Positions 9,001 to 12,000 of a DNA stretch of 64,000 bases are shown here, in pieces. The DNA is from Escherichia coli (GTDB lineage: Bacteria > Pseudomonadota > Gammaproteobacteria > Enterobacterales > Enterobacteriaceae), in the NCBI RefSeq assembly GCF_030013205.1, contig NZ_CP122648.1. One strand, given 5' to 3'. The first letter of the stretch is position 1, and every line of letters starts with the position of its first letter. Position numbers: made by a program.

Positions 9001-12000
9001 TACCTGCAAAATGGGTTATGACGAGATGGCAGTGGTTGACGCCGAAGGCCGCGTACACGGGCTGGAAGGCCTGCGCGTGGTAGATGCGTCAATTATGCCG
9101 CAAATTATCACCGGCAATTTGAACGCCACGACGATTATGATTGGCGAGAAAATGGCGGATATGATTCGCGGGAAGGATGCGTTGCCGAGGAGCACGGCGG
9201 GATATTATGTGGCAAATGGGATGCCGGTGAGAGCGAAAAAATGAGTCGTGATGTGAACTGACTCAGGAACCTATCAGATTGAGAGTTACCGTTCTACTAT
9301 GAGGACCGAATCCTTATATAAAACACTGAGGTAACTCTCATGCTTCATATCCAGTATTCATGATGCTGGTTTTTTGCTGATATTTAACCCGAACACTCCT
9401 GATACAGCCTATTAATTCATTTATCTGCGGCAGATTTTATTTTCTGGATATATTATGAGTGAACAAATCAAACAGGATATCGATCTGATTGAGATTTTAT
9501 TTTATCTGAAGAAAAAGATTCGTATTATCCTTTTTATTATAACTATCTGTATGGCAATGGTGCTGTTGTTTCTGTATATCAATAAAGATAATATAAAAGT
9601 GAGTTACAGCCTAAAAATAAACCAGACAACACCAGGCATACTTGTTAGCTGTGATAGCAATAATAACTTTGCCTGTCAGACCACAATGACTGAAGATGTT
9701 ATTCAGCGAATTACTACATTTTTTCAGACCAGCCCAGATGTCAAGAACAGAGAAATAAAGCTGGAATGGTCAGGAGATAAGAGAGATTTACCAACTGCTG
9801 AAGCGGAAATATCTCGCGTGCAGGCGTCTATTATCAAATGGTATGCGTCAGAATACCATAATGGCAGGCAAGTTCTCGATGAGATACAAACGCCTTCAGC
9901 AATTAACAGTGAGCTTTATACAAAAATGATATATCTGACCAGGAACTGGTCATTGTATCCGAACGGTGATGGCTGTGTAACTATAAGCTCACCAGAAATA
10001 AAAAATAAATACCCTGCTGCCATTTGCCTGGCTCTGGGATTTTTTCTAAGCTTTGTAATTTCTGTAATGTTTTGCCTTGTCAAAAAAATGGTAGATGAAT
10101 ACCAACAAAACTCTGGGCAGTAATAAACAGCATTCTGATAGAGAGTGCCTGTATAAAGCTGAAGTGACAATGACCGGGAAGGGAACCCGTTTTCAGGAAT
10201 GGATGCCTGTCTTTTTCACTGTAAATATCCTGGCATTACTAATGCCAGGATATTTACAGAAGAGCAGCATAACCATGACGGAACGGGGTTAAGTCAGGTT
10301 GTCCTTAACGCTATTCACAACCTCGTATGCCGACTTCAGGTTTATGTCCAGACTTCATATCTCTCTCAGCAATCCTCAATAATCAGATACACCGCTTTCA
10401 CCGGGCCATGAACCCCGACGACTTTGATAAGCTCAATATCCGCCGTTGAACTAGGGCCGCTAATGATGTTAATGCAGGACGGCATTCGTTCACCGGCCTG
10501 CGCTTTCTGATGCAATTTTTCTGCGAGTTGCGCTACACGCGGCAGGATTGTGCTTTTACGCAGGATAAAAAGAGAAGATTCCGGGAGCAGGCTCAATGAA
10601 CGCCCGCGCCCGGCGGCGGAAAAAAGAACCACGCCTCCCGATTCGGTTAAACCATATTCAGCATACACGACACCCACTTTAGCCTGCTCTGCTTGTGATA
10701 TGTTCTCAATACCTTTCGCCGGATCCCAAACAACGGCATTGCATTCCTGCTGCAAACGTTCGCTAATCCCCAATTCCTCCAGCCTCGTGTCATCGCTAAT
10801 CACGACCGACTGATCTCCCAGCTCTTTACACAGTCGTATTGCAGCTTCTGCCGCCTTCGCCTCGCTGGTCAGTTCACAGCGCGTCAACATAACATCGCTG
10901 GCAAACTGGATAAACGCGTCACAGCGCTGCTGTTGGTTAAGTGCGGTAAGCCGCTCGTTAGCATAGTTGTTAAGCGGCGCATCTTCTGCTTGCGGTTCAA
11001 GTCGCAGCGGGCGACCCAGTGCCTGAGCAACGTTATTCAAAAATTCGCTCCGATTATCCATTCTTTTTCTCCTGCGCCTGATGTTTCTTAAACCAACTAC
11101 GGAAACTCTCTCCGTCAGCTTCAGGAAGATCGCGTGCTTCCATCCAGTCGCTAATCGCGCCAAATTTGAGTGGTGTTTTGCCGCCATTGATAAACCAGCT
11201 TGCCGCATGAGCGCCGGCCATCATCCCGACTTTCCACAATCCTGGATGACTATTGGCATAAGCGAACATTTTTATCGCCCGTTGCTCTGCTTTTGCGGTG
11301 ATCCCTTTTTCAGCCATCACCCGACGATGACGCAAAATCAGTTTTGACAGCGGAATACGCACCGGACACACGTTGTCACAAGCAGTGCATAAAGAGCAGG
11401 CGTAGGGTAAATCTTTAAAATCTTTATAGCCGCCAAGTAGCGGAGAAATCACCGCACCAATTGGCCCTGGATAAATAGAGCCATATCCATGACCGCCAAT
11501 ATGGCGATATGCCGGACAAGTATTCATACAAGCCCCGCAGCGAATACAGCGCAGCACATCCCGAAATTCAGAGGCCAGCACCTCAGAACGCCCGTTATCG
11601 ACAATAACCAGATGAAACTCTTCAGGACCATCAACGTGCCCCGCTTCGCGCGGTCCTGTCAGCCAGGTGTTGTATCCCGTCAAACATGCACCAACGGCAC
11701 TGCGCGCCAGCATGGTGATCAATACATCTACCTCGGCAAACGTGGGGGCAATACGCTCCATTCCCATCACTGCAATATGCGTTTTAGGCAGCGTGGTACA
11801 CATTCGCGCATTACCTTCATTGGTCACCAGGCATACCGAACCGGTCTCTGCCACCGCGAAATTACAGCCGGTAATACCTATTTCAGCACTGAGGAAATCT
11901 TCGCGGATTTTTTGCCGAATGAATAAGGTCATCGCTTCAGGCGTTTCCGGCCCCTCATAGCCCAGACGTTCGTGTAGCACTCGACGGATCTGATGGCGAT

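Follow-up and report, generated by a model that had tools for sequence, protein, structure and literature searches.

Between betA, which encodes choline dehydrogenase, and ykgH, the Escherichia coli contig NZ_CP122648.1 (RefSeq assembly GCF_030013205.1) carries a perfect inverted repeat, and the question is whether this repeat belongs to the bet genes or came to the locus from elsewhere. The window considered here is a stretch of 64,000 nucleotides of this contig, and all coordinates refer to it (Table 1). We hold with good confidence that the inverted repeat is the outer stem of a transposase-leader hairpin, that the hairpin belonged to a dead insertion sequence (IS) of the IS481 family whose first ~112 bp are left, and that it stands at the locus as a fossil of a deletion of the PAI-X island. 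On this reading, the repeat is not a regulatory site of the bet genes, nor an unknown RNA gene, nor a new repeat family.

The inverted repeat and its predicted fold

The arms TGAGAGTTACC (9280-9290) and GGTAACTCTCA (9330-9340) were indeed found to be 11 nt each, 100% complementary and separated by 39 nt, downstream of betA, as reported in the first-pass annotation of this DNA. The left arm starts 36 nt past the betA stop codon (TGA 9242-9244), and both arms lie 5' of ykgH. The arm match is unremarkable by itself, as perfect inverted repeats of at least 11 bp with spacers of 3-60 nt occur at 7 places in the window, and at least one such repeat was present in 62% of dinucleotide shuffles (about one is expected per 64 kb). 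The reality of the feature rests on the extended fold and on homology to a conserved element, and not on the match between the arms. The intervening 39 nt, which had been taken for a loop, turned out to pair with themselves (9291-9305 with 9311-9324) around an apical loop, CCGAA, at 9306-9310. The whole of 9280-9340 is thus predicted to form a single imperfect hairpin of ~24 bp, with a folding energy of -23.2 kcal/mol (z = -5.5), a stability that none of 200 shuffles equalled.

This hairpin was rejected as an intrinsic terminator, in line with the earlier opinion that it is not a canonical one: its stem is followed by TGCTTCAT, with no U tract, and the terminator scan called instead a hairpin with six T residues that starts 11 nt downstream of the repeat (Table 1). 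The earlier remark that a T tract was missing is therefore correct for the repeat itself, but overlooked this neighbor. The terminator-like hairpin lies outside the IS-derived sequence, has a predicted energy of -8.2 kcal/mol here and -4.2 kcal/mol in the K-12 allele, and its sequence is also found to the right of the island in O157:H7. It probably marks where the bet transcript ends in strains that lack the island. The Term-seq tables examined from Adams et al. (2021) list no 3' end at MG1655 3254xx-3255xx, the nearby sites being one internal to betA (326972) and an orphan site downstream of ykgH (324578), and the TERMITe tables mention neither betA nor ykgH. An Rfam scan of 8900-9800 (E <= 10) returned noise only, with no family match.

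Table 1. Features at the betA-ykgH locus, in coordinates of the 64,000-nucleotide window
Feature	Position	Strand	Components and basis
betA (choline dehydrogenase)	7574..9244	+	RefSeq annotation of the identical locus in CFSAN018748, ORF list, translation
IS481-family IS stub (~IS positions 4-112)	9241..9349	+	Decayed IRL, leader hairpin, first 3 transposase codons
Decayed left terminal inverted repeat (IRL)	9241..9264	+	Aligns to the IRL of intact copies; overlaps betA stop TGA 9242-9244
Leader hairpin	9280..9340	+	Outer stem 9280-9290 / 9330-9340; inner stems 9291-9305 / 9311-9324; loop 9306-9310
Vestigial transposase start	9328..9348	+	Shine-Dalgarno GAGG 9328-9331; ATG 9340-9342; ATG CTT CAT (MLH) 9340-9348; compared with ylbG and intact copies
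Deletion junction (PAI-X scar)	9347..9349	.	Left side IS-derived; right side ykgH-proximal island-edge sequence; 2 nt microhomology (AT)
Terminator-like hairpin	9351..9375	+	Hairpin 9351-9369 and T6 9370-9375; terminator scan; outside the IS stub
ykgH	9455..10123	+	Context gene beyond the scar

Homology to the left ends of IS481-family elements

The similarity of this locus to IS481-family left ends extends over ~109 nt, with the left terminal inverted repeat (IRL) among them, and is not limited to the arms. Positions 9241-9349 matched an intact reference copy (L009, on the E. albertii plasmid pEA13_3, 2399-3599) with 77% identity over 110 nt (blastn, E = 1e-17), and the covariance model R1 matched 9264-9345 on the + strand (43.4 bits, E ~1e-7), which was its sole + strand match in the window. 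Intact copies, carried by plasmids of E. coli and E. albertii, have defined ends, a length of ~1.2 kb and an IRL, TGTATTAGTCGCGACTTGATCTGACAC, with a matching right repeat; in these copies ATGCTTCAT runs on into an IS481 transposase ORF, and the full-length transposase of the reference copy scored 293 bits against the NCBIfam model IS481 (NF033577; cutoff 224). Their left ends share one layout, in which the terminal repeat is followed by a conserved TTGAAA and then by a three-tier hairpin of 60-70 nt, whose left arm is GAGAGTTACC and whose 3' arm takes in the tail of the Shine-Dalgarno (SD) sequence, the spacer and also the first base of the AUG. In the window, the right arm GGTAACTCTCA spans SD positions 3-4 (the last two bases), the spacer and the A of the ATG. 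Of the TGT...ACA terminal repeats that bound IS481-family elements (~1-1.3 kb), the window keeps a decayed IRL whose first 3 nt are unrecognisable, and the right end of the element is missing. As just three transposase codons are left (9340-9348), short of an IS481 DDE transposase, the feature is a fragment of an IS481-family element and not itself an IS. The suggestion that it might be the remnant of a small mobile repeat was thus right about its mobile origin and wrong about its kind, since the arms belong to the leader hairpin of a ~1.2-kb element and are not its terminal inverted repeats.

The last codon and the stop codon of betA fall within the IS-homologous sequence. A truncation of BetA by the IS is nonetheless not claimable: in other species BetA ends 1 to 9 residues after the conserved PVR motif, so that the E. 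coli tail (...PVRAKK) is within the interspecies range and unremarkable.

A genome search for further copies of the arms, as proposed in the first-pass annotation, showed that most E. coli genomes have extra matches (at a median of 2 places and a maximum of 9, some on plasmids), but these were not the REP/BIME-type repeats that had been envisaged. All extra copies examined were left ends of one IS lineage, namely K-12 ylbG, a fragment on a pINV plasmid and the intact plasmid copies of E. coli and E. albertii. Within the window, the arms had a single further match, with one mismatch, at 38664, consistent with chance. The ylbG pseudogene of E. coli K-12, located between mnmH/selU and the rhsD region, resembles the betA stub in its IRL, hairpin and ATGCTTCAT start; it matches the N-terminal part of the IS481 transposase (E = 2e-25), shares 96% identity with the intact element across IS positions 1-466, and is a truncated copy of the same IS481-family element, for which a literature search for a name found nothing relevant. 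It differs in its locus and in keeping 466 bp and a 3' fragment, whereas the betA stub keeps ~112 bp and is far more diverged (77%). The betA stub is therefore, to judge from this divergence, an older or separate insertion.

Folding of 54 distinct leaders, drawn from Enterobacterales, Alteromonadales, Vibrio, Acinetobacter, Moraxella and Betaproteobacteria, predicted the three-tier hairpin in all but one, an Arsenophonus copy (L087) with a weak fold (-9.6 kcal/mol); the other 53 had energies of about -20 to -32 kcal/mol. In a plain MAFFT alignment, the outer stem was 96.7% paired, with changes on both sides in 3 pairs; it is mostly invariant, as 6 of its 11 pairs never vary, and these invariant pairs are neutral on pairing and could reflect another constraint. 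A first covariance-model alignment (A3) was dropped owing to palindromic minus-strand echoes and replaced by A4. In the model-fitted alignment of 58 copies, which is biased towards the structure used for fitting, 25 pairs were 90% paired and 11 of them showed changes on both sides; no shuffle out of 500 reached any observed measure, and slid controls were 26-52% paired. The sense strand was predicted to fold more stably than the antisense strand in 43 of 50 copies and one G-U pair was kept in 54 of 58 sequences, which points to a structure formed at the RNA level. The right arm adjoins the ATG in almost every copy. Fold prediction thus places the ribosome-binding site and start codon within a stable stem, paired with left-end sequence farther upstream, and this structure has been kept by compensatory change across homologous elements. 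Covariation therefore supports an SD- and AUG-burying hairpin in an IS481 subgroup found in Enterobacterales, Alteromonadales, Vibrio, Acinetobacter and some Betaproteobacteria.

These data bear directly on two other readings of the repeat. A dispersed repeat of REP/BIME type, or a mere chance palindrome, would fit the expected frequency of such 11-bp inverted repeats and the presence of extra copies in most E. coli genomes; yet there is one copy in the window, with its arms recurring once and imperfectly, neither an Rfam nor a REP-like match was found, the hairpin has a G+C content of about 40%, unlike the GC-rich ~35-nt palindromes of REP/BIME type, and the extra copies examined are all IS481-family left ends. 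With homology over 109 nt and covariation, we regard this reading as refuted and its probability as negligible. The protein-binding dyad put forward in the first-pass annotation, which would make each arm a half-site of some dimeric DNA-binding protein, for instance BetI, the transposase or a host factor, would account for the perfect symmetry and for the strong conservation of the arm sequence across the IS lineage (6/11 pairs invariant). The half-sites would however be 39 bp apart, the sequence between them also forms covarying helices, the G-U pairs and the greater stability of the sense strand indicate RNA and not recognition of duplex DNA, and the element came with the IS, hence is no bet-specific operator; we consider the dyad very improbable.

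The betA-ykgH spacer and the PAI-X island

PAI-X has been reported between ykgH and betA (PMC12928451) and has been presented as an acquired island, enriched in uropathogens (PMC7545054). None of its genes (ipbA/fimX-hyxR-hyxA-hyxB/upaE) is in the window; the stub corresponds to the outermost left part of the island haplotype, and the window to the matching island-less junction. In S88, the left junction has ATGCTTCAT joined to CGTGAC, while the right junction of O157:H7 has CTATAAAT joined to ATCCAGTATTC, the right-flank sequence ATCCAGTATTC thus sitting at the other end of the island; the BLAST breakpoints fall at query positions 149 and 148. In S88, 07-4299 and O157:H7, IS homology runs on beyond ...CAT and enters the island, reaching IS positions 165 and 299 and transposase residues 44-97, and the island strains have a decayed right end that is deleted here. 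The empty-type junction was found in 3,230 of 5,426 genomes, and the S88-type junction between stub and island in at least 1,077.

Since the IS-derived sequence of S88 and O157:H7 does not stop at the junction but extends into the island, the empty betA-ykgH site is read as a deletion scar. The island-less state accordingly looks like a secondary deletion, its direction being drawn from a comparison among E. coli genomes. The IS would have inserted at the extreme 3' edge of betA and formed the left border of PAI-X, and a later deletion, which removed everything between IS position ~112 and the island edge next to ykgH, would have given the "empty" spacer of the window and of K-12. The hairpin would remain as a fossil with no transposase to regulate, transcribed in the bet 3' UTR ahead of the terminator hairpin. 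In K-12-like E. coli (~60% of complete genomes), the spacer would then be a scar in which ~112 bp of an IS481-family element persist. By implication, strains without the island once had PAI-X and lost it, a point of relevance where fimX/PAI-X serves to mark uropathogens.

A recombination or attachment site, at which PAI-X would integrate or excise, for example as the target of the tyrosine recombinase IpbA/FimX, might also be proposed, since the island boundary is only 8 nt past the right arm and single stub alleles are found both in island-bearing and in island-less strains (one is shared by the window and S88, another by A30 and 07-4299). Against it, IS homology is unbroken across the junction, which makes the boundary an internal IS position with no att core; neither the repeat nor its arms are found at the right end of the island, the microhomology at the junction is just 2 nt, the hairpin is conserved in IS copies of many genera devoid of PAI-X, and homologous recombination in the flanks readily accounts for the shared alleles. 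The continuity of IS homology through the junction largely refutes this proposal, which we rejected as having very little chance of being correct.

Roles of the hairpin and comparison with known systems

The hairpin probably has no present-day function at the betA site. It could nevertheless have been exapted and kept for the bet operon as a 3' UTR element, whether by blocking 3'-to-5' exonucleases, assisting the weak terminator downstream, offering RNase III a site or giving rise to a 3' UTR-derived sRNA; to this option we grant a small probability. An alignment of seven alleles of the E. coli stub has 19 variable columns out of 109, including 12 of the 40 interior columns, yet the 22 arm positions are all invariant (P ~ 0.009 if changes fell at random), and this invariance could reflect selection on the stem at its present location. 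The hairpin, 36 nt past the betA stop, is moreover directly 5' of a terminator of modest predicted stability (-8.2 kcal/mol, and only -4.2 in K-12), the + strand of 9245-9390 folds with z = -4.0, and a precedent exists in IS200, whose leader RNA is known to yield regulatory RNAs by processing (PMC5435999). On the other hand, the alleles amount to just 3-4 independent haplotypes and the interior changes are clustered, probably resulting from few events, which weakens the P value. In the K-12 allele, the middle stem is gone and only 5 pairs of the apical stem are left, with no compensation; gene conversion from IS copies with identical arms could equally keep the arms, and both the Rfam scan and the Term-seq tables, negative as they were, count against exaptation. 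With a similarly small probability, the fossil would be domesticated, its preserved outer stem now acting in the betIBA 3' UTR in one of these ways, and, on a wider scale, the deeply conserved and covarying leader hairpin of this widespread IS481 subgroup would represent a new class of cis-regulatory RNA governing transposase translation.

From a mechanistic point of view, the original role of the leader hairpin, within the IS481-family element, was likely the occlusion of transposase translation. In a transposase mRNA containing both arms, the hairpin would mask the ribosome-binding site and limit the synthesis of transposase. Either every transcript would contain both arms, as in the IS200 arrangement, or a native promoter would lie inside the hairpin, so that only transcripts reading in from outside would contain both, as in the IS10/IS50 arrangement. 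The position of the promoter may be suggested by the conserved TTGAAA, 4-5 nt 5' of the left arm in intact copies; the best candidate, TTGAAA-17 nt-TTTGAT, has no -11 A and fails the consensus scan. No promoter passed that scan in two intact IS copies, and in the region of the window it returned none on the + strand and one weak minus-strand site (9463-9434), outside the element. A literature search for a described leader hairpin in the IS481 family found nothing relevant, and this subgroup thus offers a test case for translational control in a family where none has been described, according to the searches made.

The closest parallel is with IS200, where this role was demonstrated by experiment: a stem-loop of its left end (nt 69-138) sequesters the SD, blocks 30S binding and limits transposition (PMC4513863). 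Like the IS200 tnpA 5' UTR, the leader of the IS481 lineage is a long (~60-70 nt) imperfect stem-loop that follows the left terminal sequence, precedes the transposase start and engages the SD in the 3' strand of its lower stem. The two belong to unrelated IS families with different chemistry (IS200/IS605 HUH and IS481 DDE) and have no sequence similarity; in the IS481 lineage, unlike in IS200, the A of the start codon is also within the stem. IS200 furthermore has a left-end terminator and an antisense RNA, art200. In IS10 and IS50, an inverted repeat of the left end pairs with the ribosome-binding site, and outside transcripts containing both arms are translationally silent (Mahillon & Chandler 1998, review). 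No antisense RNA similar to RNA-OUT was identified for the IS481 lineage, a difference from IS10. The position of the TTGAAA, immediately before the left arm, would be compatible with a native promoter whose transcripts begin within the hairpin, in line with the arrangement of IS10 and IS50.

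Origin of the inverted repeat between betA and ykgH

The inverted repeat downstream of betA is almost certainly the fossil leader hairpin of an IS481-family insertion sequence (IS). From intact copies on plasmids of E. coli and E. albertii, an element of ~1.2 kb can be delimited, with the left end TGTATTAGTCGCGACTTGATCTGACAC and a matching right end; its 346-aa transposase passes the curated IS481 cutoff (293 vs 224 bits). In these copies the hairpin fills approximately IS positions 43-103 (numbering in the intact element), after the left terminal repeat and before the start codon. 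In a BLAST alignment, about IS positions 4-112 of the intact element matched window positions 9241-9349 (77% identity, E = 1e-17), so that everything from the final betA codon through 9349 represents the left end of a decayed element of this family. The stub is a fragment of an IS481-family element and not a member in its own right, since transposase and right end are absent. Elsewhere in the window, a weak 67-nt match (25894-25958 to IS positions 468-533; 70%, E = 0.002) was most likely due to chance.

Features of the betA-ykgH region and island junctions (a slash marks the junction)
Feature	Window position	Sequence or remark	Basis
betA-type ORF	end at 9244	same strand as ykgH	
Degenerate terminal repeat	9241-9264	includes betA stop codon	alignment to intact element
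Leader hairpin	9280-9340		alignment to intact element
Left arm	9280-9290	TGAGAGTTACC	sequence
Right arm	9330-9340	GGTAACTCTCA, exact reverse complement of left arm	sequence
Three remaining transposase codons	9340-9348		alignment to intact element
ykgH, next ORF after betA	9455-10123	same strand as betA	
S88 left junction		...GGTAACTCTCATGCTTCAT/CGTGAC...	
O157:H7 right junction		...CTATAAAT/ATCCAGTATTCATGATGCTGG...	
Window junction		...ATGCTTCAT/ATCCAGTATTC...	

Across 5,426 complete E. coli genomes, a sensitive search with the 77-nt hairpin segment gave a median of two sites and a maximum of nine per genome, some of them on plasmids. The second K-12 copy lies directly upstream of the ylbG pseudogene and is followed by the same ATGCTTCAT, which there runs on as an ORF with a winged-helix N-terminus; this ORF matched Pfam HTH_29 and, over 110 N-terminal model positions, the IS481-family transposase model of NCBIfam (E = 2e-25). 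This locus (L006 2964-3489, between mnmH/selU and the rhsD region) comprises IS positions 1-466 at 96% identity, joined to fragment 930-998; K-12 ylbG, which RefSeq labels only as "helix-turn-helix domain-containing protein", is on this comparison a truncated copy of the same element. Another copy, on an EIEC pINV plasmid (L007 3001-3115), is cut off inside the hairpin, beginning ...CTTATACAAAACACGAGGTAACTCTCATG, retains only ~100 nt of the transposase gene, and sits among other IS fragments beside ospZ and ospD3.

The first-pass annotation had described a perfect 11-bp repeat with a 39-nt loop. Exact arms, TGAGAGTTACC and GGTAACTCTCA, are indeed separated by 39 nt, but these pair internally: the 61 nt as a whole folded into one extended, imperfect hairpin closed by an apical loop of 5 nt (-23.2 kcal/mol, z = -5.5). 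Among the readings then proposed (protein-binding dyad, RNA-processing element, remnant of a small mobile repeat), that of a mobile-element remnant held, the element being the left end of an IS481-family IS. Many further copies were expected to indicate a REP/BIME repeat; extra copies do exist, but all those examined are IS left ends, which, together with the single copy in the window and ~40% G+C, rules out REP/BIME. An intrinsic terminator is likewise ruled out, in agreement with the annotation, by the absence of a U tract after the stem. The remark that no T tract was present is true directly after the repeat, but a separate, terminator-like 8-bp hairpin (9351-9369) followed by T6 (9370-9375) starts 11 nt downstream; comparison with the O157:H7 right junction places it in right-flank sequence, outside the IS. 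As for chance, at least one perfect 11-bp inverted repeat with a spacer of at most 60 nt occurred in 62% of dinucleotide shuffles of 64 kb; the repeat alone is thus not improbable, and the case for a real feature rests on homology and conservation. The 261-nt stretch around it was 100% identical to strain CFSAN018748 and ~92% to K-12 derivatives (BLAST).

Other repeats were observed in the window. A perfect palindrome of 19 bp around a 3-nt loop (CTGTAAATATCCTGGCATT-ACT-AATGCCAGGATATTTACAG, 10219-10259) separates the convergent ykgH and ykgG; a canonical bidirectional terminator is ruled out there, the T tract being absent on either strand. Five further perfect repeats of at least 11 bp with spacers of at most 31 nt (3280-3311, 17129-17166, 19286-19314, 41832-41864 and 63619-63671) are probably terminators or REP-like elements. 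These seven, the repeat at 9280 included, far exceed the shuffle expectation (19 k-mer hits vs a mean of 1.2). Adams et al. (2021) include, in their bicyclomycin tables, a Rho-dependent 3' region classed as "orphan" shortly after ykgH, together with an antisense one within the gene (MG1655 324578 (-) and 324913 (+), approximately window 9455-10250).

Deletion scar and present state of the stub

Strains S88 and O157:H7 carry ipbA/fimX, hyxR, hyxA and an autotransporter adhesin gene between betA and ykgH; these genes make up the PAI-X island, for which that location has been reported (PMC12928451; see also PMC7545054). Population breakpoints fall at ~9348 (BLAST). IS homology in island strains passes CAT and extends to IS position 165, then covers 235-299 in O157:H7 and in strain 07-4299, with transposase residues 44-97 detectable at the protein level. 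The island-bearing arrangement is older, because IS sequence is contiguous where the window switches to right-flank sequence. Read from these junctions, all in E. coli, the arrangement without the island arose by a deletion between IS position ~112 and the island end nearest ykgH, across 2 nt of microhomology (AT). Empty-type junctions were found in ~3,230 of the 5,426 genomes, and the S88-type stub-to-island junction in at least 1,077. Stub alleles occur both with and without the island (the window has the S88 allele; A30 shares that of 07-4299 and O157), which we tentatively attribute to homologous recombination in the flanks. The A-run before the betA stop (9236-9244; L002 3034-3062; L093 1890-1918) is A6 in the window and K-12 and A7 in S88 and O157:H7, where the shifted frame extends BetA into IS-derived sequence, ending ...MSRDVN (562 vs 556 aa; protein P0022). 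In O157:H7 DEC4E and STEC2018-607, the annotation gives ykgH as a pseudogene carrying an internal stop (L003 3109-3777; L092 1685-2353), and ipbA, hyxR and the adhesin gene are degraded in O157:H7 as well.

The stub has lost the TTGAAA motif of live copies, the transposase and the right end, so nothing is left for it to regulate, and the hairpin probably has no current role at betA. It is most simply read as a fossil that is transcribed within the 3' UTR of bet, ahead of the modest terminator at 9351-9375; published 3'-end data included none covering the site. A functional reading is kept alive by the invariance of the arms: the stub alignment of seven E. coli genomes, which represent three to four haplotypes, has 19 variable columns out of 109; the 40 interior columns account for 12 of these and the 22 arm positions for none (P ~ 0.009 under random placement of variable sites). 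This is suggestive only, because the interior differences are clustered and are probably the product of a small number of events, because in the K-12 allele the middle stem is gone, as is much of the apical stem, with no compensating change, and because gene conversion from IS copies with identical arms would give the same effect. The feature is an ordinary one: the leader hairpin of a fossil IS, left at the scar of a pathogenicity-island deletion.

The leader hairpin in live copies

A genome-collection scan for the transposase returned 568 relatives, and left ends were compared among the best 80 of these (77-98% amino-acid identity), from hosts including Enterobacterales, Alteromonadales, Vibrionaceae, Acinetobacter, Moraxella, Undibacterium and Nitrosomonas. 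The plan among these 80 was near-universal: terminal repeat, 5-6 nt, TTGAAA, 4-5 nt, GAGAGTTACC, GTTTTGAT, AAAGGT, loop, ATCTTT, ATCAAAAC, an A-rich linker, (A/G)AGGTAACTCTC and ATG. Folded singly, 53 of 54 distinct leaders formed the same three-tier hairpin (about -20 to -32 kcal/mol), the sole exception being an Arsenophonus copy (-9.6 kcal/mol). Copies at 81-83% transposase identity on short contigs of Bacteroidia- or Bacteroidetes-labelled MAGs (L038, L057) reflect either mis-binning or recent transfer of this otherwise proteobacterial element.

Compensatory variants were found in Methylotenera (GAGCGTTACC/GGTAACGCTC), Acinetobacter (GAAAGTTACC/GGTAACTTTC), Alkanindiges (GAGGGTTACC/AGTAACCCTC), Vibrio (CTTTGATTA/TAATCAAAG) and Undibacterium (GGTTTAG/CTAAACC). 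In a plain MAFFT alignment, pairing in the outer stem came to 96.7%, three pairs had changed on both sides, and 0 of 500 shuffles reached the covariation score. In a covariance-model-fitted alignment, which tends to favour the structure, 25 pairs were 90% paired and 11 had changed on both sides; no shuffle reached any of five measures, and sliding the partners lowered pairing to 26-52%. One apical pair was G-U in 54 of 58 sequences, and in 43 of 50 copies the sense strand folded more stably than the complementary strand; both findings favour a structure formed by the transposase mRNA over a dyad in DNA.

From a mechanistic point of view, the 3' arm runs from the last two bases of the Shine-Dalgarno (SD) sequence (GAGG or AAGG) through the 8-nt spacer to the A of AUG, which makes occlusion of the ribosome-binding site (RBS) the most likely function. 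Such translational occlusion, which would keep transposase translation low, is quite likely in live copies. Both arms may be present on all transcripts, or on read-through transcripts only, as in IS10 and IS50. The near-invariant TTGAAA (TTGACA or TTGACT in a few), 5-6 nt after the terminal repeat, 4-5 nt before the left arm and about 45-50 nt upstream of the hairpin of each transposase ATG (L010-L089), may serve as a -35 box or else as a site of transposase contact. Paired with TTTGAT 17 nt downstream, it would make transcripts start inside the hairpin; TTTGAT, however, is missing the key A of a -10 hexamer, and in intact copies no promoter passed the scan.

Two sequence-level hallmarks of SD-sequestering leaders, an RBS inside the stem and stem covariation, were found here. 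The searchable literature yielded no description of a leader hairpin for IS481-family elements; the kind of mechanism that the sequences suggest is itself well known. The IS481-lineage hairpin resembles the SD-sequestering leaders of IS200, IS10 and IS50 in holding the RBS within a stem. Among analogues with experimental support, the closest is the left-end stem-loop of IS200 (nt 69-138), by which the SD is sequestered and the binding of 30S subunits inhibited (PMC4513863).
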